The notes beneath the pieces are model-generated. The model was given only the letters and a program-made list of their open reading frames with translations, ran no database searches and was not told the origin of the DNA. From positions 832,001 to 896,000 of the forward strand of contig CAVRAG010000008.1 in the NCBI GenBank assembly GCA_963718895.1: a DNA stretch of 64,000 nucleotides. The letters run 5' to 3'. The translations under genes were made by a program, and so were the position numbers. Each line of letters starts with the position of its first letter. Position 1 is the first letter of the stretch. Shown here one piece after another: positions 17,451 through 48,322 of the stretch. Source of the stretch: an uncultured Nitrososphaerota archaeon (GTDB lineage Archaea > Thermoproteota > Nitrososphaeria > Nitrososphaerales > Gagatemarchaeaceae).

Positions 17451-17495
17451 CTACCCGGAGATTTTCACCTTGGTCGCTTGGACCTGGTCCGGCGT
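17451..17495 (-). repeat. HerA-like ATPase 3'-end fragment (family A, copy 1)
   Basis: Encodes TPDQVQATKVKISG*, matching the C-terminus of 47198..48322. Confidence 0.8.
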
Positions 17496-17577
17496 CTAGG
17501 TTGGTGAGGGTTGGGAACGTGACAGAGATCCTGTTCAGCAGCGTGCTCGAAGCTCGGTGCCTCTACACGGAGATGTC

Positions 17578-17735
17578 GGAAAGGCATAAACGGGACGAGA
17601 AGAGGTTGAGGGAAGAATGACCTCGGCGAGGCTAACGAAGAAGAAGGAGGCTGAGCTTAGGCTCGTCGCGGACTCCACTCATGACGCCCTGCTAGCGACT
17701 GCGGCCAAAGTAACAAAGGTCGCCAAGAGCTAGGG
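17578..17735 (+). repeat. About 157-bp direct repeat, copy 1, containing a 38-aa ORF (17617..17733)
   Basis: Matches 18298-18455 at an exact 720-bp offset. Encodes MTSARLTKKKEAELRLVADSTHDALLATAAKVTKVAKS. Confidence 0.85.
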
Positions 17736-17747
17736 CCCCAGTGCGGG

Positions 17748-17957
17748 TCAGCGTCTGCCTGAGATTTTTGATACTATCAAGGGGGCATCCTCCTTGAACG
17801 AGCGCTTGGCTCCGAGGATTTCTATTCCGATGATTTCGCCCTTGGCCGATAGATCAACGACGACGTTCTTGGACACCTCTACGCTCTTCCAGTATTCGCG
17901 ATTCTTCAGCTGTATGCCGAGAATATCCTCCTTCTCGTCGTACCAGGTCTCGCTCAA
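17748..17957 (-). CDS. DUF2283 family protein (putative antitoxin)
   Basis: YDEKEDILGI...VVVDLSAKGEIIGIEILGA. Confidence 0.85.
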   Translation of the reverse strand: MSETWYDEKEDILGIQLKNREYWKSVEVSKNVVVDLSAKGEIIGIEILGAKRSFKEDAPLIVSKISGRR

Positions 17958-17966
17958 GGTGTTCGA

Positions 17967-18212
17967 CTAATCGAGCCAGTACGCAGTTATAATCTTATAC
18001 CTTCTCGGACCGATGATTCTGTATGCGACCTTGAGCGTTCGACCCACAGATGGGACGCGAAAGGTCGCGTTTAGTGCATCCTCCCATCTCGCGTCCCTTC
18101 TTGTTGTTCCGCGAAGGATCGTGGCGAGTATGAATTCATCAGTGACCGTGGACCTGTACTTCCTCTTTCGCTTCCAGTGCTCGGTCGGCTCTAGGCTCGT
18201 GTCCTTTCGTCT
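17967..18212 (-). CDS. DUF4258/RelE-like putative toxin with no recognisable in-frame start codon
   Basis: Hand translation EPTEHWKRKRKYRSTVTDEFI...GRTLKVAYRIIGPRRYKIITAYWLD*. Lies upstream of DUF2283. Confidence 0.65.
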   Translation of the reverse strand, partial: RRKDTSLEPTEHWKRKRKYRSTVTDEFILATILRGTTRRDARWEDALNATFRVPSVGRTLKVAYRIIGPRRYKIITAYWLD

Positions 18213-18297
18213 CTAGGATGAGATTCGGGCTGATAAACCCAACCAAGCTCGGCGGGTACCACCTCATATCGCGACGCTCGAGTACACTTAGCTCAGC

Positions 18298-18455
18298 GGA
18301 AAGGCACAAACGGGACGAGAAGAGGTTGAGAGAAGTATGACCGCGGAGAGGCTAACGAAGAAGAAGGAGGCTGAACTTAGGCTCATCGCCGACTCCACCT
18401 ATGACGCCGTCCTGGCCACTGCGGTCAAGGTACCAAGGGTCGCCAAGAGTTAGGG
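18298..18455 (+). repeat. About 157-bp direct repeat, copy 2, containing a 38-aa ORF (18337..18453)
   Basis: Encodes MTAERLTKKKEAELRLIADSTYDAVLATAVKVPRVAKS. Confidence 0.85.
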
Positions 18456-18698
18456 ATTCGGACGGGAAGCCGTCTGGCCCTCCCAAACAGCTCAATTCCG
18501 ATTCTACACCCTGATCAAGCCTGAATCACGGCATTTGCCCCAGGCGGAGCACATAGACGCGACTCACGACACTCACCGGTATGGCTCGCCACTTCTCATG
18601 CTCGCAACCCTTACGGCCATTCTCATCGCCTTCGCGAATGAAGGCAAATGGTCGCTGCGCTTAAGTAGTACCAAGCGCATGTAGTACTGCGAGAGATT

Positions 18699-18929
18699 AT
18701 GGCTGAAGAAGTGGTAGTAACCCGGAAGGGCCAGACAACAGTTCCGATTAGACTGAGGAAGAAATATGGCATATCCGAGGGAACGAGACTTGTAGTTGAG
18801 GACACCGGTACAGGCATCCTGTTCCGGAAGGCGTCGAGCGTCCTGGACTTGGCAGGCACGGGCGCCAAGTCTGCTACTGTGGACGAAATGAAGAAGCTGC
18901 TGGACGAGATGAGAGCCGAAGAGGATTGA
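18699..18929 (+). CDS. AbrB/MazE-type antitoxin
   Basis: VTRKGQTTVPIRLRKKYGISEG. Confidence 0.9.
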   Translation: MAEEVVVTRKGQTTVPIRLRKKYGISEGTRLVVEDTGTGILFRKASSVLDLAGTGAKSATVDEMKKLLDEMRAEED

Positions 18930-19315
18930 AAGGCAGTTCCTTCGACACAAGGTTTTTGGTGGAACTGTTCTATTCTACAGATGAAAACACCCAGAGCAAG
19001 ATCAGAGCCATACTTCTAAACTCGAAGCCGAATATCCTCTCGACCGCTGCTCTTTCAGAAGTCTACAAGCTCACCCTAGAAAAGGAGGGCGAGGATGTGG
19101 CTGAGATCCGAGCGAATTCCCTAGGTAAGGACTTCCGGTTGGTAGACGTGGACAAAGAAATCGCCATTCAAGCGGCAATCATCAAGCACAGGTACGGGAT
19201 ACCCTTTGCCGATAGCTTGATCGCGTCTACCGCCACGGTCCTCGGCGTACCTTGCTACACCGACGACCCGCACTTTCACGACATCTCGGGTTTGAACGTA
19301 AAGTGGCTTCGCTGA
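18926..19315 (+). CDS. vapC: PIN-domain VapC toxin
   Basis: FDTRFL, LSEV, FADSLIASTA, YTDDPHF. 4-bp overlap with the antitoxin. Confidence 0.9.
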   Translation: MKGSSFDTRFLVELFYSTDENTQSKIRAILLNSKPNILSTAALSEVYKLTLEKEGEDVAEIRANSLGKDFRLVDVDKEIAIQAAIIKHRYGIPFADSLIASTATVLGVPCYTDDPHFHDISGLNVKWLR

Positions 19316-19464
19316 AGACGAGAAGCTTGCTGATTCCCACCATTCGAGACCCTGCACCAGGCTCTCCTCATCAGGGACCTGAAGAGAGGCCTACGGGCGT
19401 TCGCGAAACCATAATCGGCCAAGCGGGGCAATGACTCCGGCCCGAACGTCTGAGAGTCGTCTGG

Positions 19465-19544
19465 TCACGCCGAGACCTTCACCTTGGTCGTCTGGACCTG
19501 GTCCGGCGTCGAGACGCGCACCATGGCCCCGCCGATCTTAAGGA
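19465..19544 (-). repeat. HerA-like ATPase 3'-end fragment (family A, copy 2)
   Basis: Encodes LLKIGGAMVRVSTPDQVQTTKVKVSA*. Confidence 0.9.
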
Positions 19545-19588
19545 GACCTCGTTCAGAGATGGACTCGTCCTCTCCAATGTCCACAGAA

Positions 19589-20317
19589 TCATGCAGGCAC
19601 TTCGATACGCTTCGATCGGCCTGCCTCCAGCCCCAATCGAAGATGTCTCTTCTTCGTTGGCGCATTCTCCAGCCGCGCCTCGACGAGCTTCCTTAGGCGC
19701 TTGTACTGCTTCCGGACCGTCACTTCTCCTACCCCAGCCGCCTCTGCAGCCTCACGCTGGGTCAGCGCGCTGCCCTCAAGCATCGAGGCCAGATAGAGGG
19801 CCGAGGCAGCGAGCCCCCGGGGGTAGACGCCGTCGGTGATTCCCGCTCTCTCGGCTTGCGACAGTATCTCTCGAGCATCCGCCTCCACCTTCAGCCCCAC
19901 ATTCGTTCGGTATGCGACCCTCGCCAAGCACTCCGTTGGGTCGCCGACGGGGATCTTCAGGTCGAGCTCGTTGACCAGCGACCTGTACCACCTAGCTACC
20001 GTTATGCTTCCCACGCCGCTGGCCGCGGCCACGTCATCGAGGGTTGTTGCGATGCTCCTCTCCCTGCAGGCGGCATAGAGCGATGAGACGGCGATTTTGG
20101 CGAGTGGCTTCCCCTTCGCCAGACCCGTTTTCAGACTTCTATTGTAGATAGAGGTCGCTTCGTCTGTCACCTCGTGGGGGAGGAGAAGTTTGTCGGAGGC
20201 CTTCTTGATTTCTCTGAGAGCAACTCCTGCTGCTTCAACCCTGTTCTCTGTGATCAATGCCTTCAGCCTCCTGGGCTGAGAACCTCCTGACCAAGTTGTC
20301 CATTCCAACCACGGCAA
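19589..20317 (-). CDS. tfb: TFB (TFIIB) core-domain paralog with no Zn ribbon
   Basis: Two cyclin repeats: SLYAACRE, PRGLAASALYLAS, TQREAAEAAGVGEVTVRKQYKRL. No CxxC at the N-terminus. Confidence 0.8.
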   Translation of the reverse strand: MPWLEWTTWSGGSQPRRLKALITENRVEAAGVALREIKKASDKLLLPHEVTDEATSIYNRSLKTGLAKGKPLAKIAVSSLYAACRERSIATTLDDVAAASGVGSITVARWYRSLVNELDLKIPVGDPTECLARVAYRTNVGLKVEADAREILSQAERAGITDGVYPRGLAASALYLASMLEGSALTQREAAEAAGVGEVTVRKQYKRLRKLVEARLENAPTKKRHLRLGLEAGRSKRIEVPA

Positions 20318-20385
20318 TCAGTCATCCCGCAGTTTCGGCCGCTGCTGTGAAGATCCAATCTTGCCGAGCGCGGGCTGATTATGTG

Positions 20386-21345
20386 CTATTTCGACCGAGC
20401 TCCCCTAGACGCGAAGATCACTCCGGCTAACACAATGGCGACAGCCACCACAACGTAGCTCGCGTCATTGCCGAACGACGAGGAACCCGAGGTCGTTGAC
20501 GATGAGGTAGACGAAGTGGTCGATGACATGGAGGTTGAAGTGGTTGTGGAGCTTGAGCTGGCACCACTTGAGACCATGGAACTGGTCGTACTCGTTGAAG
20601 GTGTAGTGTTGGTGGTGCTCGAAGTCGCAGTTGTGCTTGCCGTGTAGGTCTGGCTGCTCAGGCTCAGCAGATATGTGTTCATGTCAGTTGCCGCGTGGGC
20701 CCCGGGTTCGGAGAACTCTCCCACCGCAAAGCCAACCTCAATCGAAGTTCCTGAAGCGAGGCCGAGGAACGGGTCGTGAGGCGAAGCGTTGGTGAGATGG
20801 AGTGGCCGATAGCATTCTGCCGTGTAGACGGTCCCTGAGAGGGCCAGTGCACAGGTCGACTGGGTCTTGTAGCCGTCGGTTTCGACCGATGTCGGAGTGG
20901 TCTCAGCCTGAGATATGAACTCGTCGTAACCTCCCTTGAAGGAGGGACTGACGAGAAGCATGATGGCTGGGTTGAGCGCAGTTCCCATTACACCGACGTT
21001 GCTCGCGTTATCGAACTCGACGCCGCCGTAACAGTACTGGTCGGTACAAAGTCCGCTGGTGATCATCTCGGGCCACTGCATGAGAATGAACAATCCGGTC
21101 GCGTTGTGTTTGAAGGCGACGCCCATGCTCGAGACCGAATCGTTAATCATCTGGGCATCGCTCCATTCACCAGGAGAGACCTTCCCGTCGAGCTTCACCG
21201 GCGCTTGAGCCTGATAGGCTACGAGGGTCTGGGCTGCGCTCACGTGTGGAACGGCCGCTGCCAGCAGAAGGGCCAGGAGGAGCGCCAGAGGGAGGGTACC
21301 GAATCTTCGTTTACGGAGCACAGCTAACCTATCTTCCAATGACAT
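20386..21345 (-). CDS. Secreted DOMON/CBM9-like protein with Ser/Thr stalk and C-terminal TM anchor
   Basis: Signal peptide, PVKLDGKVSPGEWSDA, S/T run, transmembrane segment plus basic tail. Confidence 0.7.
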   Translation of the reverse strand: MSLEDRLAVLRKRRFGTLPLALLLALLLAAAVPHVSAAQTLVAYQAQAPVKLDGKVSPGEWSDAQMINDSVSSMGVAFKHNATGLFILMQWPEMITSGLCTDQYCYGGVEFDNASNVGVMGTALNPAIMLLVSPSFKGGYDEFISQAETTPTSVETDGYKTQSTCALALSGTVYTAECYRPLHLTNASPHDPFLGLASGTSIEVGFAVGEFSEPGAHAATDMNTYLLSLSSQTYTASTTATSSTTNTTPSTSTTSSMVSSGASSSSTTTSTSMSSTTSSTSSSTTSGSSSFGNDASYVVVAVAIVLAGVIFASRGARSK

Positions 21346-21557
21346 CCACCCTGAGGTCAGGAGGACATTCCCAATGGTCTACTCGTTCCGACCTGTCCGA
21401 AGCTCTCCACGGGGAGAGTGCATCGCCTACTGCATGCCCGTTAGCGGACCGTTTGCTCCTGTAATTTCCTCGCTGACCCTTCATGTCTACATCTAGGTCC
21501 CTCTGGTCTCTTCTCCAGTCCTCTTGGTTCTCGCTGTTGAGTCGTAGCTTGTGGGTG

Positions 21558-23220
21558 CTATGACCAGGCGGTCTCCGCTGCTGCATTGGTCCCCGCGATG
21601 CGACCGGAGATGAAGGTCCAGATCATGTGTGTGCCGTGACCTGCGGGCATCGACCCGCCCTTGCCACTGTCGCCACCGGCATACAGCCTGGGGATTGGTT
21701 TGCCGGCTTCATCCACCACGTGCAGGTCTGGGAAGGAGATGTTCAGCGTACCGTTAGTCTGCTGTGTCGAGTACATCGACGACTTCATGCCGTAGAAGGG
21801 CGGGGTGAGTATTCCGGGCCCAAGTGTCGACCTATTGAAGTCGGCGTCCTTGCCTGCAGTGCAGTAGCCGTTATACTTCGTCACCGTGGCCGCCAGACCC
21901 GTCGCGCTTATGCCAAGGGCATTGGCCAGGTCTGTCAAGGTGCTGGCTTGCGACAGCACCCCCTGGGCCAGCCATTCATTGAAGTATGTGTGCCCCGAGC
22001 TAATGTGCATCACCACATTGGCTTTGGCTGGAACGCTGTCGAAGATCATGTAAGCTGTGCTATTCGTCTGCGCCAGCGTGTCTGTAGCAGTGGTGCTCCC
22101 TATCTCGTTCGTGAATCTGACCCCTTGGTTGTTGACCCATATGGCGTACGACATGATTGCTGGCTGATACTGGTAGGCTGTCAGCTTCGCGTTGGGGTTG
22201 GTGGAAGTCGACGGGTATCCATATGAGGTGTCAGGGTTGATGTGAGTGTTCACTACGTCCCACTTGAGCTGGGGCGCAGGCACGTTGTCGAGGCAAATCG
22301 GCGCGCCTCCGATAGCCATCGCCTCTATGATCGCATCGCCAGTGTCCCCTGGACATGCGGAGCTTGGCAATGAGAAGTAGCTCGGAGTCGTTCCAAACAT
22401 CCCAAGGAACTTCTTGTTGGCGGATGGGTCACCCGCGGCCAAGACCACGGCTTTCCTTGCCTTGACGTTGATGACTTTGTTTGCGCTCTGCGCAGTGACA
22501 CCTATGACACCGTTGACGGGATCTCGGATGAGAGACGTCACCGGGGTACTGTACAGGAACGTGACGCCTTTGGCGGTCGCGGCTCGCATTGAGAGTCGTT
22601 GGGTATGTTGAGGAGTTCGGTACGGCCGCCATGAGACGAGGGGCGGTGCTCGTCCCGTCAAGAAGTGGGCTGTACGGCTGCCAAATCACTCCCTGCGCAG
22701 TCAGGAAATCGATTGCCGCGGCGCCGTTGTTGGTGATAAGCGTCGCAAGCCCCGGGTTGATTCTTGGGTCGGTGCCAGGGCCCGTCAGTTCGGCAAAGTA
22801 TTGGGCGGGTGAGTCCGTTATGCCCGCTGCAGCTTGGTACTTGGTGCCGCATCCTGATAGCGTGCCAGCGCAATGGCCAGAATCCGCCAATAGCGAACTG
22901 GGCTCCTTCTCCAGGACGAGTACCTTGGCTCCGGCACCAACTGCTTCTATCGCAGCGGATAGGCCGGTTGTGCCTGCGCCCATTATGACGACATCTGCTG
23001 TGTAGTCCCAGGTTGAAGGGATTCCCAGAGTCGTCGTGGCCGTCTGCGTCTGGGTGACAGCAGGCTGCGTCGTGGTCTGAGTCGAAGTCTCTGTCGTCGT
23101 CGAGGCGGACTTCCCCAGGTATCCGCCCGTCGCACCTATCACAGCGCCGACCGCAAGGCCTGCTACTGTTCCAGCTACGAATCTCCGCCGTGTTAGTGTG
23201 CCTTTTGATTCTTCAGTCAA
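21558..23220 (-). CDS. Tat-exported FAD-binding protein A (fumarate reductase/flavocytochrome c flavoprotein family), frameshift near 22588
   Basis: TRRRFV, DVVIMGAGTTGLSAA, GDTGDA, IPRLYAGGD, GRIAGTNAA. Confidence 0.88.
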
Positions 23221-23253
23221 TCTATATCTGAGTAACGAGTTGTGTCCAGTTCG

Positions 23254-23935: not shown

Positions 23936-24484
23936 TTAACCCTTTCGCTGGACAAATAGCCTCACCAAGGATTCTCTTGCCTGCGCCGGACCCCGCGACC
24001 TGTCTTCCGCATACTCGTGGTGCCTTTTGTTCAACTTATCCTCTTGCCCAGCGGCTGCAGCCTCCAGTGCCGTGGGGTAAACGCCGCCTGTGATCCCCGC
24101 CTTCTCGGCCTTCGACAGCATCTCGAGAGCGTCAGCCTCCACCTTCGGCCCCACTTTCGCTCGGCACGCCACGCTTGCCAGGCACTCCGCTGGGTCGGCG
24201 ACGGGGATCTTCAGGTCGAGCTCCCCGACCAGCAATCTGTATCGCCTGGGTACTGCTTCCTTTCCACGCGGCTGGCTGCTGACACGTCTCCCAGCGTCAC
24301 CGGGGCCTTCCTCTCCCTCCAGGCGGCATATAGGGGACGCGGCAGCGATTTGGGAGAGCGGCCTCTCTCTGGCGAGACTTCTATCCAGACTCTTCTTGCA
24401 TATGCGAGCAGCCTCGTCCGAGACCGCCACTGGGATTGAGAGTTTCTCGGAGAACTGACCGAGTTCCCCGAGCGCGATTCCCAC
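23936..24484 (-). pseudogene. tfb: TFB core-domain paralog, frameshifted and 3'-truncated
   Basis: Near-identical DNA to 37972-38613 (LDLKIPVADPAECL). Similarity is lost after YPTAL. Confidence 0.8.
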
Positions 24485-26492: not shown

Positions 26493-26753
26493 TTGGGTGC
26501 AAGTGACATCATTTCCCCGGATGAGCGAGAGCGGTCAGCATAATCGAGACTTCTGTTGGGACCGCTCCCAATTCATCAGTGTCTTATCTCGGGGCGCCAA
26601 CGCTGGTCACTAAAGCCGGGCCAGGGCGCTTGTTTCTCATCTGTACATGCCTTCCCCTGATTCTCCCCGATATCCCGTTACCCATTACAATCTGAGCGTC
26701 GGGCCTGTAGAAAGATGTGCTCAATGTCGCCTCTCATCGACTCTTATCATTGT

Positions 26754-26904
26754 CTATTCGGCGACTTTCACTTTGGTCGTCGCGACCTGCTTTGGCGTCG
26801 AGACGTGCACCATGGCCTCGCCGATCTTCAGGAGCATGAACTGGGAGATGAACCTGTCGGCCTCGTGCTTGTTGACCATGAACCGAAGCATCAGGTCGAT
26901 GTCC
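26754..26904 (-). repeat. HerA-like ATPase 3'-end fragment (family A, copy 3)
   Basis: Encodes DIDLMLRFMVNKHEADRFISQFMLLKIGEAMVHVSTPKQVATTKVKVAE*. Confidence 0.95.
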
Positions 26905-27075
26905 GACCTTCGAAGATCGCAACCCCGTTCTCGCAGAGCTCCTCGCAGAGTACCCCGACGGCGTAGGAGGGGAGACTCGCGAAATTCTGTGTCCGCCTCC
27001 AAGGGGAGAAGTTCTCCAAGCAGGACCACCTTTAACTAGGCAAAAAAATTCAATGATGTAAAAGGAGTCTATAGC

Positions 27076-30855: not shown

Positions 30856-32714
30856 CTAGACGCCCGAATCGTCAAGACAGCCCGGTATCACCAAGATGCT
30901 TCGCGATGAGGGCGATGCCGTGGGACTTGCCCGCGCCTTGCGCCTGCCTAGCAACAAAGACAGGCCGGCGACTACGAGTATGGCGCCCACTCCTATCCCG
31001 AAGTAAGGCGAGACGCTGGTGCTGCTGGAGGACGTACTCTGACTGCTCGTCGTCGTGGTCGTTGTCGTTGTGGACGACGTTATCGATGGGGACGTGCTAG
31101 ATGTTGTTGTGGAGGGAGAAGTGGTTGAAGTGGTTGTCGAGGACGCGGTCGACGACGATGTGGTAGTTGGGTTCGTGACTGTGAGAGACGGGAACTGCAG
31201 CTGGAACGTGACCACCGCGTTAGCACTCCCCGTATTGTTCACCGCGATGGTCACCGGGTCGTTGCCAGAGGGGCTGATTAGCGGTATCGGCATCTCGGTT
31301 GGAATGCCAGAAAGAGCCATGACTCCGCTCGCGGAGGTGGAAGTCTTGTTTTCGCCGCTCGCAAGTATTGCGATGGCGGAGGAGTTGCTGGTCGCGGTGT
31401 AGAGACTTATCATGTTCTGAAGTGAAGGAGGTACGGAGAATTGCAATCTGGTCACCTTTCCCGCAGGGACGCAGAATTGAATCGTATTCAAATCACCAGA
31501 TATGGGTTGCCCGGAGTTGAGAAGGATCGTGCCGCTGTTGCATGTCCGTGGAACGGTCGTGTAGGTCGTGGTGTCGTTCTTCTGCAATGTCGTGAAGCTT
31601 TCATTGGCGTTCACCGTCACCCTCTGACTGTATGTTCCGAGAGCTCCCGACAGAAAGACGGTGCCACCGCTGTTTAGAGCCCCGACCTGGACAATGCCGT
31701 CGAGATCATTCACAGTGAGGTGATTCCCAGCAGCCGAAAGAGAAAACTCTGCTCCACTGATAGCCGTTATTGTTGCACAGGGGCCCGAAGGGCAGTCCAC
31801 ATTCACAATCGTGCCCCAACTTCCTCTTAGGAAGTTGAAGGAGTCTGAGGCGCAGGTCTGCGGACAGTTGAGGGTGAAGTTCCCCCTTGAACTCCAGGAG
31901 AGCGTGCTCCCTCCTAGGTGGATAGTGCTGCCGTCCGAGAGGGTTACCATGTTCGGGGAAGGAATATTGACTGGCGTAGAAATCGGGCCTTGGTCGTCTT
32001 TACCGGATTCGACGCAGACGGGAGGCTGATATGAGCCTATGCTAGTTGACTAGTGTACATGTTGCAATAGGTCTGGAGCTGCCAAAGTCCAACGGTGACG
32101 CTATGAATGTCTTGGTAAGACGCCGTGCCGCCTCCTGGAAGGGTCTGGGATGTCTGCCTGTCCGTTAGGGTAGAAAAGGTGTAGCCGTCCACCCAAGGCA
32201 AATCCTCCAGGCCCGTGATACGCTGGGGCTGGAAGACGTTGGCCCTGCTAGTGAGTAATCCTGAACATTCACTCAAGCCGCTAGTTTGGTTTTCGCTCTG
32301 AGTGATTGAAGGCGACGATGCGGACAAGTTAGCCGCTTGACCTGTTACTGACCCTGTTACCCCGAATACGAATGAAACCCGTATCTCGCCACTACAAGCA
32401 AGTGATCCGTTCAAGTAGCCAATGAACTCAAAGAGATACTCGCCTTCCGGGGTCCCAGACGTATCGACTTTTCCTTCTTCGGTTACGTTGAGATAACTCT
32501 GTGATGCCAGCTGGCTGTTATAGTGGATATTCCAACCGTCCGTTGCCGTCACATTCTGGTCATCTTGAGCATCAGTAAAAAGCGTCCAAAGTCCGGCGGG
32601 GTTTGACTGGGCCTGAGCGCGGGCGGTGGAGAAGAGTGGGGGAGACGCGAGGAGAAAGATGGCAAGAAACGCAAGACCGACGACAAAACTCCCAGAGTTT
32701 CCGGGCTTCTCCAA
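30856..32714 (-). CDS. Large secreted surface protein with FecR-like segment, Ser/Thr stalk and TM anchor (break near 32040)
   Basis: Signal peptide in ORF 32037. VTLSDGSTIHL...ISGAEFSL...LDGIVQV, S/T run and TM in ORF 30856. Could be two genes. Confidence 0.6.
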
Positions 32715-32904
32715 CGTTCCTCACGAGAGGAATCTGTTTTCGTCCGAATCTATTAAGGATTGGTCTGATTCCCAGAAGGGAGAAGAGAGAGGGCGGGCTC
32801 GAGGAGCAGTCGACGAAGAGGATGAATCGCTGGAACCGTTACCAGGTCTCCGAAGTCGAGCAACCAGAGCCGATTTAAGGACCGGGAAAACCGCACCCGT
32901 CAGG

Positions 32905-33738
32905 ATGGAACTCAAGCCCTTCGGCCCGACAGGCAGGCAGGTAAGCGCCATGGGGATGGGCACCTACTACGACTTCCCCTGGATCATCAAGGCCAGACTC
33001 GGGAGCAGGGGAGGGGCGTCATCGAAGGTGGAGGCGCTCAAGGCGGGTCTCGATGGAGGCATCACGCTGATAGACACGGCCGAGATCTACAACTCTGAAC
33101 CGCTCGTAGCTAAGGCCATATCCGGGCGGAAGAGGGAGGACCTCTTCATCGCCACGAAGGTCATGTTCCTCCACCTGCGGCACGATGCGCTGGTCAGGGC
33201 CCTCGAAAGGAGCCTGAAGAGCCTCGAGGTCGACTACGTGGACCTCTACCAGGTCCACCAACCCAGCCCGTTCGTGCCGATCAAGGAGACGATGGGGGCC
33301 CTGGAGGAGATGGTCGACGGGGGCCTCACGCGCTCCGTCGGGATCTCGAACTTCTCCCTCAAGCAGACCATCGCTGCGAAGGACGCGATGAAGAAGCACC
33401 GCATCGCCTCGATCCAGATGCCGTACAACCTGGCGGACAGGAGGATGGAGAGGGAGATACTCCCGTTCTGCAGGAAGGAGAACGTCGCGCTCCTCGCCTA
33501 CTTCCCCATGGGCCACGGGAAGCTCGTCTCGAACCCAAAGCTCCGAGAGATCGGGGCGAGGCATGGGAAGACGGCCGCCCAGGTGGCGCTCAACTGGCTG
33601 CTCTCGCAGGAGAACGTCTTCCCCATCCCGAGGGCATCCCACGCGGCGCACGTTGAGGAGAACTTCGGCTCGATGGACTGGAGGCTCACCGACGAAGAGA
33701 AGAAGGAGCTGGATAGGGTCTTCCCTCCCCCGAGTTGA
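32905..33738 (+). CDS. Aldo/keto reductase
   Basis: MGMGT, IDTAEIY, FIATK, DYVDLYQVH, VGISNF. Confidence 0.93.
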   Translation: MELKPFGPTGRQVSAMGMGTYYDFPWIIKARLGSRGGASSKVEALKAGLDGGITLIDTAEIYNSEPLVAKAISGRKREDLFIATKVMFLHLRHDALVRALERSLKSLEVDYVDLYQVHQPSPFVPIKETMGALEEMVDGGLTRSVGISNFSLKQTIAAKDAMKKHRIASIQMPYNLADRRMEREILPFCRKENVALLAYFPMGHGKLVSNPKLREIGARHGKTAAQVALNWLLSQENVFPIPRASHAAHVEENFGSMDWRLTDEEKKELDRVFPPPS

Positions 33739-33964: not shown

Positions 33965-34010
33965 CTAGGGTCCAGTGATGGGCTGGATGTGGATCTCTTC
34001 GCCGTTCTCG
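33965..34010 (-). repeat. Repeat family B copy (left flank of the C39 cassette)
   Basis: Encodes ENGEEIHIQPITGP*. 33981-34010 is identical over 30 bp to 35858-35887. Confidence 0.9.
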
Positions 34011-34174
34011 TCGGGAACTTATCTTATGTTTTCCGCTGGGGTTCGCGGTTCAGTTCTCAGCAGATAGCTTTCCAATCCTTCAGGAGCTTGGAAAGCGAGG
34101 TAGGCTGTTCCGATTTGGAAAAGAGAATCAAAAAGAGGTCTATCCGAGTCGAGAGCGGGTAAGAAGTGACTCGC

Positions 34175-35132
34175 TCAAGCCCTAGTAGGGTGGCCTTGTC
34201 CTGTCGCCAGTTTTAGACTAATCATCTGCTTGAGAATCTCGTCCACTGCAACGCAACAATCGTTCTCAGCCTTGATTGCGTGAACGTGTGAAAGTTCCTG
34301 GAGGGTGGAATTGAGAGCTTGGTCACTCGCCTCGGCATCGTCGTACGAGAATCTGTAACGGTCAAACAGACCTCTTCTCGAAATCGTTACCGGCTTTTCG
34401 GCATCCAGAGCGAACCAATAGTAGCTACTATCAAGGTGAATGGATTTCTCGAAAATATTGATGCGGAAATTGTCCCTGATTGTCGGATACCTATTCTTCA
34501 ATAGATGGGCAAATACTGCTCGGTCGAAGTCCATATCGTTCTTCAAGACCTTTTCCTCTAATGCAAGAAATGTGGGACCGTATGTCCATCCCTTTTCTTC
34601 GGGAAGATATCTTACAATCTCAAGCTCCGCTAGCAAAGTTAGATACTTGAACCAATTAGGGTCGCTGGCTTGAACTTCGGCCCTAGTAACGTAGTGGCTT
34701 CCCATGAACAGGATACCTCAAATTGTCGAGGATCATGACTACGGGAGAGAGGAATTGGTCTGCACCTCGCGTCATCGCAAGTTGGTCGGCGGATGCCTCC
34801 ACCATTATTCTTTCGGCTTGAATCTTCCATAAGTCTAGCCTATCCCAGACTTGTCTTCCGCACTCGCCTCTGGTCGTGGCTTGTATCACGTTCATGTCTG
34901 AGTCAAAGATGATTTGTCCAATGCCGTCCATCGGAATGTATCGTAGAATTGGTTCTTCCGCACTTTTCTCATCCTTAATCCATCGCGGATAGTCAGTCCG
35001 AAGTTCGGCAATCCATTTGCCAGATTCGGATTTGATTCTGCCGACACTTGTCAGGTTGCCATAGTGGCGAAATACGTAGTTCTCTATGATTTGCTTAGCA
35101 TCCATCTTTGGTCTCGCTCTCGAATTCATCAA
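34175..35132 (-). CDS. Hypothetical protein of about 310 aa, possible winged-helix segments (frameshift near 34700)
   Basis: ORFs 34683..35132 and 34175..34705 overlap and join. Low GC, overlaps the C39 gene. Confidence 0.7.
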
Positions 35133-35679
35133 TTCTGGTACTCCTTCCTATTTGAACTTTCAAGAGGTCGAATCCTCCATAGAGCCACTTTCGCTCGAAG
35201 TCGGCAAGACGCTCCGTTTTCTCCATTGGTGGTCCTGGGTCATTGTAAGTTATCCGACCCGCCTGAACGTCGATGTCAATCACCACGACCGCGTGTTGGT
35301 GGTGAGAAACCCCGTCGCCAACGTATTGCCAAGCGATGCATGGTAAGCCCTTTGAAATCTCTTCAGCTATTTCATTCACGGTACGAAATCTAAATCCGTC
35401 ATCAAATTCGACCGACGGGGAAGCAGCCGCTATGTGTCCATTTAACAGAGGAACGTCGCTCGCTAACGTGCCATCACTCTCCCTTACAATTTTCGCTATC
35501 TCACGAATTGTCAGGTCGGTAATTGGCGTCCGCAATCTGCCGCTCTGATTCAGATACTCAATCACCATCTTTACACAGGTTGGCACGCAAAAGAATTCTT
35601 CTTGTTGGGCTATCAAAGGAACATTGAGCTTTCGGCCAACACTCACGTCGAGCGCACCGAGTGTTGTCTTGAGTATCAC
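35095..35679 (-). CDS. Peptidase C39-like cysteine protease
   Basis: LNVPLIAQQEEFFCVPTCVKMV (Q, C), HAVVV (H), YNDP (D). Confidence 0.85.
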   Translation of the reverse strand: MILKTTLGALDVSVGRKLNVPLIAQQEEFFCVPTCVKMVIEYLNQSGRLRTPITDLTIREIAKIVRESDGTLASDVPLLNGHIAAASPSVEFDDGFRFRTVNEIAEEISKGLPCIAWQYVGDGVSHHQHAVVVIDIDVQAGRITYNDPGPPMEKTERLADFERKWLYGGFDLLKVQIGRSTRIDEFESETKDGC

Positions 35680-35841
35680 GCTTATATCACTTCTACGATG
35701 TCTCCTTATCCATCTGGATTCGCGATTTCAATCATAGCCGTGGAGCACCGGTAAAGTGGAGGCAGGATTACAACCTCCTGATGCGCAGCTCAGAATGGGA
35801 TGAATAGAAATGAAGACCGAGAGCTCCGTGGCTCTCGATGC

Positions 35842-35887
35842 TTAGGTGCCGGTGATTGGCTGGATGTGGATCTCTTCGCCGTTCTCG
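35842..35887 (-). repeat. Repeat family B copy (right flank of the C39 cassette)
   Basis: Encodes ENGEEIHIQPITGT*. Confidence 0.9.
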
Positions 35888-37971: not shown

Positions 37972-38613
37972 TCATGCAGGCACTTCAATGCGACTGGACC
38001 GGTGAGCCTCCAATTCGAATCGGCGGTGGACTTTCCTTCTGTGCGCTCTTTCCAGCCGCGCCTTTACGAGCTTCCTGAGGCGCTTATACTGGTTCCTGAC
38101 CGTCACATCTTTCACCCCAGCCGCTTCCGCCGCGTCGAACTGGGTCAGCGCCTCGCCGTTCAGCAGCGACGCCAGATAGAGGGCTGCGGCCGCCAGTCCG
38201 GTCGGGTAGACGCCGTCTGTGATCCCCGCCTTCTCCGCCTTCGACAGTATCTCGAGGGCGTCAGCCTCCACCTTCGGGTGAACTTTCGCTCTGGAGGCGA
38301 CCATCGCCAGGCATTCCGCCGGGTCGGCGACGGGGATTTTCAGGTCGAGCTCCTCGACCAGCAGCCTGTACCGCCGGGCTACCGCTTTCCTCTCCACGCC
38401 GCTGGCTGCTGACACGTCTGCCAGCGTCGCCGGGACCTCACTCTCCCTGCAGGCGGCATACAGGGACGCGGCCGCAATCTGGGAGAGCGGCCTACCCCTG
38501 GCGAGACCTCTCTCCAGGCTCTTCTTGAAGATGCGAGCAGCCTCGTCCGTGACCGCTACTGGGATTGAGAGTTTCTCGGAGAACTCGATTAGTTCTTCGA
38601 GAACAATCCCTAC
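37972..38613 (-). CDS. tfb: TFB core-domain paralog; GTA where copy 2 has a GTG start
   Basis: 214-codon open frame VGIVLEELIEFSEKLSIP...SLYAACRE...VKDVTVRNQYKRL...RIEVPA*. Confidence 0.75.
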   Translation of the reverse strand, partial: VGIVLEELIEFSEKLSIPVAVTDEAARIFKKSLERGLARGRPLSQIAAASLYAACRESEVPATLADVSAASGVERKAVARRYRLLVEELDLKIPVADPAECLAMVASRAKVHPKVEADALEILSKAEKAGITDGVYPTGLAAAALYLASLLNGEALTQFDAAEAAGVKDVTVRNQYKRLRKLVKARLERAHRRKVHRRFELEAHRSSRIEVPA

Positions 38614-42413: not shown

Positions 42414-42529
42414 TCCGTTGTCACTGACTCAACGTCAAGGCGACTTGGGGAGTTCGCAGTCGCCTGAAAAGAAACGAAATCGCCTCAAGATCGCGAGGAT
42501 CTCGGAGTACAGCGTAGAGCTTCCAGTGT

Positions 42530-42593
42530 CTATTCGGAGATTTTCAACTTGGCCGCAGGGACAGGCTCAGGCGTCGAGACGCGCACCATAGCC
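42530..42593 (-). repeat. HerA-like ATPase 3'-end fragment (family A, copy 4)
   Basis: Encodes AMVRVSTPEPVPAAKLKISE*. Confidence 0.9.
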
Positions 42594-43703: not shown

Positions 43704-43863
43704 CCCGGCTGGCAGGGTCTGATGATTTCATCGCCCTTTGAAGGTTGTCCGGTACATGCTGAAGGATCGCGCCCGAACCTGTCGCTCTTGCCCGAGACCA
43801 GCGGGGAAGCACGTCGAGGGCGGTTGTCCAGGCTGCGATTCATCCTGGAGGTTCTCGGGGCGC

Positions 43864-44107
43864 CTACTGGGAGATCTTCACCTTGGTCGCGGGGACCGGC
43901 TCGGGCGTCGAGACGCGCACCATGGCCTCGCCGATCTTCAGGACCATGAAGTCGGAGATGTACCTGTCCTCCTCGTACTTGTTGACCATGAATCTGAGCA
44001 TCAGGTCGATGTCCGGGCCGTCGTTCAGCAGGTGGCAGACCTTGATGGAGATGTTCTTGAGGAGCCATCGTAAGAGCTTGGAAGGGCTGGTCGCCGCCAC
44101 GAGGCCC
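43864..44107 (-). repeat. HerA-like ATPase 3'-end fragment (family A, copy 5, longest)
   Basis: About 80 codons: ATSPSKLLRWLLKNISIKVCHLLNDGPDIDLMLRFMVNKYEEDR...TKVKISQ*. Confidence 0.95.
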
Positions 44108-44124
44108 CAACGAGACGCCGACTC

Positions 44125-45587
44125 TCACCACTGCACGTGGACGTGGTTTACACCCGGCGTCTCGCACGGCACGCCGTGCACCGCTCCCTGCGCCTCGCAG
44201 ATGCTCAACGGGTTCCCAGCGTCCGTGCCAGCCTGGCGCAGGGCGTTCAGCGTCGCGATGAAGGCCGGAGTGCCAGGAGCGTTGGGCGTCGGCTGAAGGT
44301 CGAGCGCCCTCCCCCAGACGTGGTGGCTCGTTGTCCCGACGTGGCTCACGCACGCGTTGTTCCTCGGATTGCGGTATCCGCAGGAGACGATCCAGGTCGA
44401 CTGAGACAGGGCATCGAAGGCTTGGGTTATCGCGTCGAGGTGGGTCTGCAGCCCGTCGTCCATTATGAGCGAATAGCTTCCGTTGTCGAAGGACGCGCTC
44501 GCCGGCGGGACGAACTGATCCTCGTGGGGACGCTCTGCGCCTGAAGGTCGAGGTACTCCTGTCGCATGATGTCCGTCTCGTCCTGGACGAGGTTGTAGGT
44601 CTGCGAGGATTCCTGCAGCGTGGCCGACAGGTCGTACATGATCGGTTCGTTCGGCACTCGGGAGCAGCCGGTGGGCCTGTTCGTCGGGTTTGGCGTGAAG
44701 CTGAAGGTGTCACCGCCGGTCTGCTGGTTGGGGTTCCCGTCGCCGCTATCTGTGCTCTTGCCGGTCACGTTCCAGGAGATCTGGCTCGACCAGCTCGAGG
44801 CCTGCGCGCCCGTGATCTCTATGTGGAACTGCAGTGTGTCGGTCGAGATGAACGACTGAGTCGCGTCGGTCCTGTCATCTCGCTTTATGGTGAATGGAGG
44901 GGTGAGCTTGAAGGTCCAGACCGTGGTCCTCGAACCGAGTTCCATCTCGTCCTGGAAGGTCTGCGTGACCGATTGCGAGTCAGCATCGTTGAGGCTGATG
45001 GTCATGGGCTGAGGGTTGAGAGCGGCCATGTGCGGGATGCACGCGGGGAGATAGACCGAGTCCCCGGTGTAGGAGTTCGGATTCATCGTCGTCGACATCC
45101 ACTCGGCCGCAGTCGTCCCACCCAGAGCGTTCGAGATGGCGTTCTCCGTGGGTGGAGGACTGCCGCTCTTGATCAGGTTTGCGAGCGCCGACCAGTTGCC
45201 GAGATATCCAGGTGCGTCCACAGAGAACGGGGTGGTCGTCTGCTGGCCGTCGCCCGTCTGGGTCGTACTTCCCGAGGCCTGCAGTCCCGTCGTGCTGATC
45301 CCCGTGATGCTTATTGTCTGGGTTCCCCCATCGTAGGTTCCGCCGGCGAAGTAGTCGATCGTCCCGGACGCAGCGAACTGCGCGGTCCCCTGACTGCCGT
45401 TGGCGTTGAAAGTGCCCTTCATCGGGCCCGCGAACGAGTTCGGGGACGGCCCGGGCTGTTGCGGCTGGCCCACGACGAGCTCGAAGCTCCACTGTCCGCT
45501 GTAGCTGCAGTTGAGGCTGTTGCGTCCCGAGATGGTGACGACCGCGCTCACCGCCACGGTCCAGACGTTGGGGGGAATGAGGGCCAC
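44125..45587 (-). CDS. Protein with beta-rich N-terminus and C-terminal peptidase M15-like Zn domain (frameshift near 44515)
   Basis: CGYRNPRNN...SHHVWGRALD...NHVHVQW (R, HxxxxxxD, HxH). Confidence 0.8.
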
Positions 45588-45892
45588 GCGTCTTCTCCTC
45601 CTCCCAGGGCAGGAGGTCTATTAAGAGATTCTAAGATCAGGCTCTGTCAAGCCTTCGTTGGGCAAGGGTGGGCGCTCAAGCATGCTCTCAGCGTGTTGTA
45701 TCCGAGTAGTAAGGACGGATCCCGAGCGAATCCGTCTGACTCATGGGCAAGAAGGGCGGTTGAGGTTCGACCGTCCATTGAACACAAGGCGGGGCACGTT
45801 GGAGCAGTGAGTGGGAACCCGACGACGGGCATCCTCAGAGTCGATGCCTCGAAGCCAAGTTTTTTTGGTTACCCGACAAAGGCCTGACAGAA

Positions 45893-45990
45893 CCCTCGGG
45901 TGATCTGAGTTCGTAGCTCAAGGTTCCAGATTCGGATCTGCTTGTATCGATAGGGCGATTTTTCCTCTCATGCCAGAAAAGAGGGCGCTG
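45893..45990 (-). repeat. Repeat family C, copy 1 (coding remnant)
   Basis: Encodes ALFSGMRGKIALSIQADPNLEP*ATNSDHP. Homologous to 51500-51585. Confidence 0.7.
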
Positions 45991-46019
45991 GCACCGCTAT
46001 GGTAAGCCCGGTTCGGAGA

Positions 46020-46080
46020 GAGGGTCAAGCTTCTCGATGAACCGCAGCGCGTTCCTCTTGATCTCAACTCCGAACGCCAA
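46020..46080 (-). pseudogene. 5' stub of a RelE/ParE toxin
   Basis: MAFGVEIKRNALRFIEKLD overlaps the antitoxin end. Stops 8 codons later. Confidence 0.65.
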
Positions 46081-46252
46081 GAGTCTTCATGAGCTCTCTT
46101 TCTTCCACAACCTCGTCGCGCTCTGCTATTGCCTTCTTCTCTACCCTCGTCGGTTCTTCGATTGGTATCAGCCTATCGACCATGTGCTTGTACAAAAGCC
46201 TCAATTCCGTGAGTTCGTCGTGAACATCCTTCAGAGTAACAGACTTTGCCAT
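46064..46252 (-). CDS. Small antitoxin-like protein
   Basis: IPIEEPTRVEKKAI...VEERELMKTL. Upstream of the RelE stub. Confidence 0.7.
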   Translation of the reverse strand: MAKSVTLKDVHDELTELRLLYKHMVDRLIPIEEPTRVEKKAIAERDEVVEERELMKTLGVRS

Positions 46253-46423
46253 CTCGAGGATTCATACGAGGCGCACGCTGTTATTTGTGCCCGTCGCGGG
46301 GAGCCTTCGTTGCCCCACGGAAGGACGCCCTTTTCGATTCGCCGACAGTAATGACCTGCGTCGAGATCTTCACCTCGATGGCCGAGACAAGGCTTATTAT
46401 CTTGTATAGACGTTGTATATACA

Positions 46424-46645
46424 ATGGCCGATTCGCTGGTGACGATACGGGTCCCGAAGGAGACGAAGGATAGGATGAGAAAGGCGGGGTTGAACTGGAG
46501 CGAAGAGTTGCGCAAGGTGATAGAAGAGCGCCTGTCGGAGGACCGAAGGCGGGAGGCGCGCAACGAACTGGAGAGACTCCTGATTTCGGTGAAGCCTGGT
46601 TTCGACAGCGGCATCCAGATAAGGGAGTCAAGAAGGCGTGGTTGA
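46424..46645 (+). CDS. vapB: VapB-type antitoxin
   Basis: VTIRVPKETKDRM...NWSEELRKVIEE...IRESR. Confidence 0.85.
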   Translation: MADSLVTIRVPKETKDRMRKAGLNWSEELRKVIEERLSEDRRREARNELERLLISVKPGFDSGIQIRESRRRG

Positions 46646-47075
46646 GTCCTACGTCGTCGACGCCAGCGTGGTCGCAAAGTGGTTCAACAGAGGGGAGGCG
46701 AACGAGAGGGAGGCCACCCTCCTGAGAGACGCCTGGATCGACCGAAGGACCGAACTGTTCGCGCCTTCGCTGCTCCTCTTCGAGGTCGCCAACGCAATCT
46801 GGAAGAATCCAAATGTTGATAGAAAGACCGCCCGCTCTCTCACAAGACTGGCGGTACGGATCTCTCCAAGCCTCCTCAACCCGAAGGAGGAGGTTGCCGA
46901 GCAGGCGATGAGGTTGGCGAGAGCCCAGAAGATTACCTTCTATGACGCCGTGTACCCCGCCATCAGCAAGTCCCTGTCTTTTCCCCTGATTACCGCCGAC
47001 CGAGAGCAGCTGACCGTCTCACAGGGGTACACAAAGGCGATGCATCTGTCTGCGATCCCAAATCCGGCCACGTGA
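46638..47075 (+). CDS. vapC: PIN-domain VapC toxin
   Basis: VVDASVVAKW, EVANA, ITFYDAVY, LITAD. Confidence 0.9.
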   Translation: MVESYVVDASVVAKWFNRGEANEREATLLRDAWIDRRTELFAPSLLLFEVANAIWKNPNVDRKTARSLTRLAVRISPSLLNPKEEVAEQAMRLARAQKITFYDAVYPAISKSLSFPLITADREQLTVSQGYTKAMHLSAIPNPAT

Positions 47076-47197
47076 ATCTGCGAACGGCGCCTCTCGCGGA
47101 GAAGACTAGGCGGTTCAAGATGACGCCGCTTGCCCCCCTCGACGAGGGCGCGTCTCTGGAGTAAGGAGGACTCATCAGTGAGATCTCGGCGTGCAGG

Positions 47198-48322
47198 CTA
47201 AAGCTTCCGCGTCTGCTCAGAGACATTCACCTTGGTCACAGGGACAGGCTCAGGCGTCGAGACGCGCACCATGGCCTCGCCGATCTTCAGGAGCATGAAC
47301 TGCGAGACGAACCTGTCCTCCTCATACTTGTTGACCATGAACCGGAGCATGAGGTCGATGTCCCGGCCGTCGTTCAGGAGGTGGCAGACCTTGATGGAGA
47401 TGTTCTTGAGGAGCCACTGCGAGAGCTGGGAAGGGCTGGTCGTCGCCACGAGGACCCCCTGGCCGTACTTCCTGTTCTCGACGACCATGGCGTCGAGGAA
47501 CCCCTTGTAGTTCCCCCTGTCCGGCGCGACGTGGTGCGCCTCGTCGATGATGAGGAGCTGGCGGAGGTAGTCGGCCGGGCCCTTCTCCTTCGCCATGCGG
47601 TAGAGGCGCTTTATGATGACCTGCGAGACCAGGTCCTTCGGCTGCTCGAACTTGAAGGGGGAGAGGTCGACGATGTGGATGCCCGGCCCGAAGAACGTCT
47701 CGAACGAGAGCGACTCACCAGAGTCGAAGACCTTTCTTGCAGCCCCCACCGTCAGAGGCCTCAGCCTCGAGATGACCGCCTCCCGGGACTCTGCCAACCC
47801 CTGGAACTGCCGGTCCTCCCGGTACTCCTCGACCGCCTCCATGAGGTCGGAGATCCGCGACTGCCCGGACTTGGAGATGTCGGCCTGCAGCCTCTCCATG
47901 CTCTTGCCGACTATCCTCTGCTGCAGGAAGCCGAGCGGCTGCCCGTCCTCATAGGAGACCTGGACGTAGTGGGAGACGGTGTCGATGGCACCCTCGACCG
48001 CCTCGTCGGCGTCCCAGCCCCGGTCGGCGGCGAGCAGCGAGAGGTGGAGGTTCCTGCCTGCGGCGTAGACCGTGCAGTAGGGCAGGCCCGAGAGCGCCTC
48101 GGCGTGCTCGCCCGTCCTGTCGAGGATGACAACGGCGACTCCGGTGTCGCCGAGGTGCTTCGCGATGAGGGCGATGTCGTGGGACTTGCCCACGCCGGGG
48201 ATGCCGACGATTACAGCCCCGCGGGTGAGCCACGAGTACTTGACCATGAAGGGCTTCACCTCTCTCGTGTCATGCTCCTCGATAACGGTCCCCAGCTGGA
48301 ACGATTCAGAGTTGAGATTCAT
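47198..48322 (-). CDS. HerA/DUF87-like P-loop ATPase ('HerA2'), intact parent of repeat family A
   Basis: GIPGVGKS, ILDRTGEH, IIDEAHH, ENRKYGQG. ATG at 48322. Confidence 0.9.
   Translation of the reverse strand: MNLNSESFQLGTVIEEHDTREVKPFMVKYSWLTRGAVIVGIPGVGKSHDIALIAKHLGDTGVAVVILDRTGEHAEALSGLPYCTVYAAGRNLHLSLLAADRGWDADEAVEGAIDTVSHYVQVSYEDGQPLGFLQQRIVGKSMERLQADISKSGQSRISDLMEAVEEYREDRQFQGLAESREAVISRLRPLTVGAARKVFDSGESLSFETFFGPGIHIVDLSPFKFEQPKDLVSQVIIKRLYRMAKEKGPADYLRQLLIIDEAHHVAPDRGNYKGFLDAMVVENRKYGQGVLVATTSPSQLSQWLLKNISIKVCHLLNDGRDIDLMLRFMVNKYEEDRFVSQFMLLKIGEAMVRVSTPEPVPVTKVNVSEQTRKL

Follow-up and report, generated by a model that had tools for sequence, protein, structure and literature searches.

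Co-oriented copies of gene 3' ends mark a hypervariable island in an uncultured Gagatemarchaeum archaeon

How does a gene come to be followed, over tens of kilobases, by displaced copies of its own 3' end with unrelated genes between them? This question is raised by a 64,000-nucleotide (nt) stretch of DNA, hereafter the window, from an uncultured Nitrososphaerota archaeon, in which an intact HerA-like ATPase gene, HerA2, heads an array of such copies. The genome under study (G000; 3.13 Mb in 11 contigs) belongs to Candidatus Gagatemarchaeum, a Thaumarchaeota lineage without ammonia oxidation, the genus name being taken from a relative's record; the genomes of relatives are numbered G001, G003, G007, G010, and so on. 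Coordinates are window positions unless prefixed C8, the window being C8:832001-896000, and q numbers are positions in the HerA2 query gene (window 48418-47198, minus strand). An earlier note, made from the sequence alone, had attributed the array to incoming DNA that recombines homologously within HerA2 and illegitimately at its other end, a mechanism that is plausible.

Displaced 3' ends of the HerA2 gene

HerA2 (47198..48322, minus strand) encodes 374 amino acids from its ATG, in an open reading frame (ORF) that stays open back to 48418. Searching with this gene by blastn recovered all five of the 3' pieces that had been reported, each on the minus strand and each reaching a stop codon; their 5' ends are given here as blastn ends, which may move by a few bases. 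Piece A (43860-44108; q962-1210) is 88.4% identical to HerA2 over 249 nt (E = 9e-89) and ends in TKVKISQ. The corresponding values are 84.8% over 79 nt for piece B (42515-42593; q1143-1220; E = 1e-18; tail AKLKISE), 85.0% over 153 nt for piece C (26752-26904; q1056-1208; E = 8e-45; tail TKVKVAE), and 81.8% over 88 nt for piece D (19458-19545; q1126-1209; E = 1e-18; tail TKVKVSA). Piece E (17446-17499; q1158-1211; tail TKVKISG), the most eroded, matches HerA2 at 74.1% (E = 0.002) and is closer to piece A (83% of 53 nt, E = 2e-7) and to piece D (88% of 42 nt, E = 8e-7). The tails thus differ in sequence, as the earlier note had described, and the intact gene ends in yet another peptide, TKVNVSEQTRKL, unlike those of A-E. 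Because the pieces are only 74-88% alike, they are not duplicates produced by assembly; the best of the public sequencing runs contained a fraction of 0.14 of the sampled words, and its contigs of 150-360 nt bridged none of the junctions.

Although these five pieces stand, the list was incomplete, since two further 3' pieces and two 5' or middle pieces exist. A sixth downstream tail, piece F (C8:827254-827301, minus strand), lies 4.7 kb outside the window. Upstream of HerA2, another HerA2-type 3' piece (60462-60525, minus strand) is 78-82% identical to HerA2, A, and D (E = 8e-7 to 4e-10) and sits directly after a paralogous gene, HerA1, and a VapBC pair. The remaining two pieces belong together. 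A 5' piece (49556-49719, minus strand) runs from the promoter region to q219 (blastn q52-219; 76.3% of 169 nt, E = 7e-27) and stops at the Walker A codons, and a middle piece (30882-30937, minus strand; q223-278; 89.3% of 56 nt, E = 2e-15) resumes three bases on. Because q219 and q223 abut, we read the two as one older HerA copy, apparently split by 18.6 kb that contains HerA2 itself.

All nine pieces lie on the strand of the gene (binomial p = 0.004), and seven of them are 3' tails. The six tails downstream of HerA2 are all co-oriented with it, which is the arrangement of a C-terminal displacement array. Genome-wide, the pieces are not scattered: all nine fall within C8:827-894 kb (≈67 kb), and blastn against the entire 3.13 Mb found no further HerA2 3' copy elsewhere. 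Piece C is part of a 91-residue chimeric ORF (26754-27029), and just upstream of it, in the same reading direction, positions 26922-26966 are 86.7% identical over 45 nt to the 5' part (5768-5812) of a third HerA-like gene.

That third gene (5622-6785, plus strand) and HerA1 (61387..62526, minus strand) bring the HerA-like ATPases of the window to three. Over the HerA P-loop domain, Pfam DUF87 (PF01935), HerA2 scores 33.9 bits (E = 4.5e-8), above the cut-off of 23.2; it also matches the PADLOC mad8 model (7e-20) and HerA models, and its translation contains Walker A and Walker B motifs. By these sequence criteria HerA2 is classed as a P-loop ATPase within the FtsK-HerA superfamily. HerA1 is 32% identical to it at the amino acid level (tblastn E = 1e-46) and matches DUF87 (4e-22) and TrwB_AAD_bind (8e-8). 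The top NCBIfam match of HerA2 is CedD, at 87 bits, and HerA1 reaches 90 bits with the same model; the cut-off is 600, so the similarity is one of superfamily only. Two short nucleotide patches are 94% identical between HerA1 and HerA2 (62285-62319 versus 48096-48130, and 61331-61377 versus 47485-47531); these could be strongly constrained motif regions or small gene-conversion tracts.

A second anchor, tes, within the island and across the genus

Is HerA2 alone in this behavior? In a genome-wide control of 2062 ORFs of at least 150 amino acids, at least three co-oriented, downstream, 3'-only copies were found for two genes only, and both belong to one island: HerA2, with five copies, and tes, with four. 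The tes gene (74078-75769, C8:906078-907769, minus strand), which lies intact 10 kb past the right end of the window, encodes tetraether lipid synthase; its product scores 694.9 bits against the NCBIfam equivalog NF045702, for which the cut-off is 450. Within the island, eight displaced copies of the final 32-82 nt of tes lie between 73550 and -9321, seven of them on the tes strand and intermingled with the HerA pieces. The HerA array is therefore nested, as one layer, in a larger array of like design whose anchor is the tes 3' end, and the whole is a hypervariable, integrase-free island of ≈83 kb that starts at that end.

Three of the tes tails lie outside the window (73471-73550, 72840-72889, and -9321..-9268). 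Within it, the only inverted copy (52264..52307, plus strand) is 86.4% identical to tes over 44 nt (E = 4e-7), and the minus-strand copies are at 35841..35887 (91.5% of 47 nt, E = 2e-11), 33967..34016 (90% of 50 nt, E = 2e-11), 16039..16070 (a pattern match with two mismatches; 87.5% of 32 nt by blastn), and 11326..11407 (82 nt, 75.6%, E = 1.5e-6). The tail at 16039-16070 forms the end of a truncated ORF that retains only the N-terminal part of an AlkZ-like protein. The copy at 35841-35887 has 85 nt (91.8%) in common with the one at 72806-72890, a downstream hairpin included, and its first 30 nt match exactly the first 30 of the tail at 33967-34016. Between these last two tails lies a 1.8-kb cassette (34017..35840, minus strand) with a GC content of 0.486, as against 0.56-0.62 around it, that encodes a C39-like peptidase (Pfam Peptidase_C39_2, 2e-9) and two ORFs without assignment. 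A 162-nt inverted repeat (82.7%; 11222-11382 versus 54101-54261) has one arm that overlaps the tail at 11326-11407.

The same anatomy recurs in relatives. With a 201-nt query from the tes 3' end, extra partial copies appear beside tes in most genomes of the genus; the stretches fetched from 13 genomes contain 41 partial tails of 32-285 nt that fall into several length classes and all terminate at or near the stop codon. Orientation is shared by 40 of the 41, either with tes or, where the stretch has no intact tes, with each other (p = 4e-11). The complete genome G007 carries six tes tails within 28 kb, and the units between them measure 0.5-20 kb. They hold an aldo-keto reductase-like gene, a small enzyme, and a VapBC pair, while the 20-kb unit encodes GmrSD, a D12 methylase, a helicase, and an AAA_23 ATPase. 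Displaced HerA-like tails are found in G001 (two), in G010 and G011 as orphans without the gene, and in G050, a member of a different genus. The tail in G003 abuts a run of N, so its boundary is unreadable. We left out of the counts an "orphan" HerA core in G017 (E = 6e-4), which lies within a stretch collinear with an unrelated region of G000 and is probably a chance match. A scan of reference-genome contigs with HerA2 returned the G001 record alone, and one of metagenome contigs with an alignment of the orthologs returned 13 loci, with a downstream tail at the G001-like locus only, most flanks being too short to judge.

Comparison with these relatives also bears on polarity. In G001 the HerA2 ortholog (90% nucleotide identity) is broken by stop codons, with tails still downstream, and ≈170 nt after it follows a homolog of the window gene 7251-8678; there, G001 C7:14014-15612 is 88% identical to window 8738-7137. 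Since the G001 locus lacks the 38.5 kb that bears A-E, that DNA was either added next to the gene in the present lineage or lost in G001. The distal tail F and its neighbor are common to G000, G001, and G010, although a 492-bp deletion has cost G000 a VapBC-like pair together with the first bases of F. Behind tes, the island of G010 measures ≈15 kb in all, against ≈83 kb in G000, and synteny resumes beyond it. The G003 and G021 orthologs are 96% identical in amino acid sequence, and the DNA that follows them differs from ≈200 nt past the stop codon, so that the gene does occur, as had been anticipated, with different DNA downstream. That distal units are common to relatives and gene-proximal ones unique fits additions at the gene end. 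The array was first proposed to be an ordered record of acquisitions, and the proximal 38.5 kb and the common distal F agree with this; the upstream piece at 60462-60525 and the insertion at q219/223 mean that the history was not a simple one-way push.

Might the pieces instead be what is left of a decaying, paralog-rich region, in which tandem duplicates of segments with HerA or with tes tails were whittled down by chance deletions, directional insertion playing no part? The region does abound in truncated genes and short repeats, the 492-bp deletion is documented, and the HerA-like 5' fragment just upstream of piece C is what an internal deletion would leave. Random deletion, however, should yield similar numbers of 5' and 3' remnants, whereas HerA has left seven tails against one split 5' copy, and tes, in the stretches searched, 41 tails and no 5' remnant. 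Although tes is single-copy and looks essential, nothing but its final 32-285 nt recurs; moreover, the cargo varies from unit to unit, and one unit is of foreign GC content. We regard decay alone as very unlikely.

The presence of tes arrays equally affects the role of the ATPase, which had been envisaged as a conserved anchor and possible DNA translocase. Close orthologs of HerA2 (>50% identity) occur in only 4 of the 22 other genus genomes searched, which makes it an accessory gene rather than a conserved anchor, and because the same architecture stands on tes, in this island and throughout the genus, the link to DNA translocation is probably incidental. The related proposal that the ATPase acts as a Ced/VirD4-like translocase that imports or processes DNA, with its own 3' end as a cis site, could draw on the three HerA-like ATPases of the window and on the ortholog in G050, another genus, whose displaced tail lies 3.4 kb downstream. 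Against it stand the CedD scores of 87-90 bits, the tes arrays of genomes such as G007 and G010, in which HerA2 has no close ortholog, and the tails that persist behind the stop-broken G001 gene. CedA/CedB-type partner genes were not identified in the window either. A translocase-driven process accordingly seems highly improbable.

Routes by which the arrays could arise

No integrase, transposase, or mobile-element backbone gene (replication, partition, virion, or conjugation) was found by Pfam in 60 window ORFs and 10 ORFs of G007; the 60 comprise 59 of the 77 called ORFs (all but 18 small ones) and one extra. The claim that the window contains no integrase or transposase thus holds for the scanned ORFs, and the relatives' arrays are likewise clear of the recombinase family PF00589. 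G000 has four PF00589 matches, none within C8:812-916 kb and the nearest ≈295 kb from the island, and no match in the whole genome to PF16795, PF00239, or PF01867. Neither a serine recombinase nor Cas1 was thus found in or near the arrays. With PF01867 (Cas1) absent, the island does not qualify as a casposon; terminal inverted repeats were not searched systematically. No PF00589 match lies near the arrays of G001, G007, G010, G012, G014, and G018; G007 has a single match, 500 kb away, G018 has one, and G014 has none. Among the ≈50 units seen, not one carries a recognizable integrase or backbone gene.

That the anchors are two and unrelated, that the tails come in many lengths, that the cargo is host-like and made up of single genes, and that ≈50 units lack a recombinase together favor a homology-anchored process that is indifferent to the gene it uses. 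We therefore tentatively prefer, at slightly short of an even chance, the view that the HerA and tes arrays grew by homology-anchored serial displacement, the function of the anchor being incidental. As to the recombination route and the source of the DNA, we infer the following. DNA of related strains would enter the cell and pair with the chromosome through a common gene, tes or the HerA-like gene, which would merely supply homology. The other side would be joined without homology, either as a linear fragment (homology-facilitated illegitimate recombination) or, from a circularized fragment, by a single crossover. An intact gene would thereby be rebuilt from donor and recipient parts, and a 5'-truncated tail would be left downstream of the new cargo. 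Repeated rounds would stack cargo units with the newest adjoining the intact gene, and later deletions and insertions would erode and shuffle the array. Illegitimate joins do occur in the island, as the HerA copy split at q219/223 and the 492-bp deletion into F demonstrate. In two cases a tail resembles the allele of a relative, intact alleles being too few for a tree: the tes copy at 35841-35887 has 94.7% identity with tes of G010 as against 91.5% with the resident gene, and piece D matches the G001 ortholog's 3' end at 89.6% over 77 nt, with the same tail TKVKVSA.

Several observations weigh against serial displacement through homology. A homology of 40-80 nt is short for RadA-type recombination, and we saw no direct sign of DNA uptake, a recent event, a donor, or a circular form. 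Differences between piece A and HerA2 are spread over the codon positions as 10/6/13, with 9 synonymous and 16 non-synonymous codons among 82, counts that give no clear sign of divergence under selection. The boundaries are also less free than had been supposed when the variable 5' breakpoints were taken to argue against a fixed att core: 7 of 11 HerA pieces start within q1126-1143, and a 17-nt invariant core is kept by nearly all of them. For tes, a core of 26-30 nt, which nearly all pieces likewise retain, is identical in three tails and the intact gene, three tails of G000 begin at one identical base, and the 26-nt core is the same in four tes orthologs that are otherwise 88-92% alike. Finally, HerA2 and its G001 ortholog agree at 799 of 885 positions up to the core and at 29 of 46 after it (p = 2e-6). 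Such cores, shared 5' ends, and drop in identity are the expected traces of site-specific crossover; alternatively, they could stem from coding constraint that preceded displacement, from copying of one fragment, or from detection bias. A degenerate pattern for the 26-nt tes core matches in 12 of the 22 other genus genomes and occurs at least twice in nine genomes, G000 included; it is multi-copy only in this genus, other genera having none or one, and a reversed-pattern control gave no match; by this measure the arrays look restricted to one genus.

These traces lead to the principal alternative, in which the arrays consist of tandem or nested site-specific integrations at the invariant cores. 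The final 50-80 nt of the HerA-like gene would serve as one att site and the final 47-80 nt of tes as the other, the recombinase would act in trans or have been lost with decayed elements, and the tails would be attR-type scars. Direct repeats with identical cores, as in tandem elements of tyrosine integrases, are present (17 nt for HerA, 26-30 nt for tes), with coinciding 5' boundaries; the sequence is variable only 3' of the core, and identity falls sharply after the HerA core. The low-GC cassette lies between direct repeats of 45-50 nt whose first 30 nt are identical, and since deletions erode the array, integrase genes could have been lost. A precedent exists in Thaumarchaeota, where 14 of 68 integrated elements lie in the 3'-distal parts of protein genes and arrays are known to form when a site is used again (PMC6563490). 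Set against this are the island without a match to PF00589, PF16795, PF00239, or PF01867, the six relatives whose arrays have no PF00589 nearby, the ≈50 units devoid of recognizable integrase or backbone genes, the spread of tail lengths from 32 to 285 nt, and at least two target genes that would require different specificities. Viral contigs scanned with the 17-nt HerA core offered no carrier, as all five matches were chance 17-mers in high-GC contigs without HerA context. On balance, site-specific integration, though a serious rival, appears somewhat unlikely. An 8-mer, TCGGCGAG, lies at the left edge of both cores (HerA2 ≈47276-47283; tes ≈74129-74136), and several short tails begin there; this sharing is a lead only and may well be chance, which we estimate at a few percent.

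Arrays of bacterial IMEX are both integrase-free and tandem, like those described here, and one might suppose that the units are Xer-dependent, IMEX-like elements, with XerA of the host acting on a dif-like site that overlaps the ends of the genes. Several genus genomes apparently conserve a single tyrosine recombinase (locus L001, C8:1337640-1341140 in G000), whose top NCBIfam match is XerA at 99.8 bits, under the cut-off of 220. The start of its ORF, however, reads like a translated tRNA-gene 3' end, and a 253-residue HerA/VirB4-like ATPase gene follows, as in an ordinary integrated element. The recombinase has a C-terminal zinc-ribbon-like CxxC pair. Two different cores would also be required, and dif-like palindromic arms are not evident; eight repeat copies folded as single-stranded DNA in a search for attC-like hairpins gave z-scores of -1.5 to +1.5, none of them significant. 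Along C8, cumulative GC skew climbs steadily between 80 kb and 1540 kb and does not turn at the island, which, the dif site itself not being located, places it in mid-replichore and not at the terminus, where IMEX would be expected. We had considered a dif/terminus relationship because the tes stop codon of G007 (C1:1127003) falls at 50.0% of the coordinate scale of that single-contig genome, but the skew in G000 lends the idea no support. Xer-dependent insertion is the least probable of the explanations considered.

One further reading is distinctly unlikely: the tails may be recombination sites in active use by an archaeal cassette platform without an integron-type integrase. Single genes or small defense modules would then move between Gagatemarchaeum genomes as cassettes and enter at the invariant cores, which lie within the 3' ends of particular genes, through the action of RadA on very short homology or of an unrecognized recombinase. 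Were this so, gene capture of an integron-like kind would be built on gene ends, not attC sites.

Kinship with known systems and significance

Orphan modules of contact-dependent inhibition (CDI) systems belong among the bacterial displacement arrays. For Rhs and Vibrio type VI secretion system (T6SS) effector-immunity arrays, sequential or C-terminal displacement has been proposed, with homology-facilitated illegitimate recombination as the suggested route (PMC5361080). In the arrays of this island, as in those of Rhs, T6SS, and CDI, co-oriented and 5'-truncated copies of a gene's 3' part line up behind the intact gene with other genes in between, an integrase is absent, and new modules adjoin the intact gene while older ones are pushed downstream. 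The present arrays differ in their archaeal host and in their anchors, which are genes for lipid synthesis and for a P-loop ATPase instead of toxins. What is displaced is a conserved tail of 32-285 nt that runs to the stop codon, in place of a toxin domain that varies, and unrelated genes (defense, toxin-antitoxin, oxidoreductases, TFB paralogs) make up the cargo where cognate immunity genes would stand. The design of the array is thus already known; what is new is the archaeal host, the housekeeping and ATPase anchors, and the defense, toxin-antitoxin, and metabolic cargo. In the literature searched, which excluded subscription papers and supplements, we found no report of such arrays in archaea.

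Integrons, which are reported in Archaea too, likewise place one-gene cassettes between short repeats, add them at one end, and carry cargo rich in toxin-antitoxin and accessory genes. Here, in contrast, there is no IntI, the genes that adjoin the arrays are tes and a HerA-like gene, the island has no PF00589 match, and the repeats are gene tails rather than imperfect palindromes. The Ced and Ted ATPases of Crenarchaeota (CedB, CedD) resemble HerA2 and HerA1 in superfamily and as the top match, CedD, but the scores are far under the family cut-off, and no membrane domain or partner genes were seen. The thaumarchaeal tandem elements (PMC6563490) occur in the same phylum, target protein-gene 3' ends where the insert supplies the stop codon, leave direct repeats of tens of bases, and form arrays by re-use of a site. 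They were recognized by their integrases or casposases and mobile-element genes, none of which we saw in the present arrays or those of relatives; in addition, the present units can be one ordinary gene of 0.5-3 kb, and the repeats reach 249-285 nt.

If homology-anchored displacement holds, the island would clearly exemplify in archaea a process that has hitherto been invoked chiefly at bacterial toxin loci, and large defense and accessory islands could grow on ordinary genes. The scars would form an internal, ordered record of acquisitions, readable in strain-resolved metagenomes of a widespread uncultured soil lineage. If a dedicated recombinase is responsible instead, the invariant cores would define its sites and make it possible to find the enzyme. 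In both cases, the region downstream of tes stands out as a hotspot in which to look for defense systems of this genus.

Cargo genes and further repeats

The cargo is host-like: its genes, which stand alone or in small groups, belong to families with several copies across the genus, namely FAD_binding_2 (four genes), TFB (three genes), YNCE propellers, and pairs of VapBC and HicAB type. First behind HerA2 comes a VapBC-like pair (46424..47075, plus strand; PIN, 1e-11) that converges on the HerA2 stop codon. An AbrB/MazE-PIN pair (18699..19315, plus strand; MazE_antitoxin, 1.7e-6; PIN, 3e-13) similarly converges on piece D. At the far end of the 38.5 kb, the gene 7251..8678 (minus strand), the first downstream of HerA2 that is common to G001, resembles AMP-dependent CoA ligases in NCBIfam, under the cut-off. 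An aldo-keto reductase gene (32796-33738) is 94% identical to G007 C1:1152453-1153397, compared with 88.7% for the tes genes of the two genomes. Although the gene stands just after a tes tail in both genomes, the homology ends at the ORF ends and excludes the tail, so that this case is no evidence for gene and tail moving together as a cassette.

Co-oriented and apparently 5'-truncated copies were also seen for TFB (19589-20317, 23936-24484, and 37972-38415) and FAD_binding_2 (21558-22661), families that may behave like the two anchors. A 159-nt direct repeat (88%; 17577-17735 versus 18297-18455) lies inside the unit between tails D and E. An operon-like block at 56259-60119, which includes an N-terminal ATPase fold of RadB/KaiC type (57567-59021) and three proteins without assignment, sits at another place in G010 (C4:84985-88447, 77.5%). 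Lastly, an 84-nt direct repeat (82%; 45894-45977 versus 51492-51575) covers, in one arm, the start region of a YNCE-propeller gene (50242-51519) and lies, with the other, ≈300 nt upstream of an uncharacterized 374-residue gene (44463-45587), and the two genes may share a promoter or leader.

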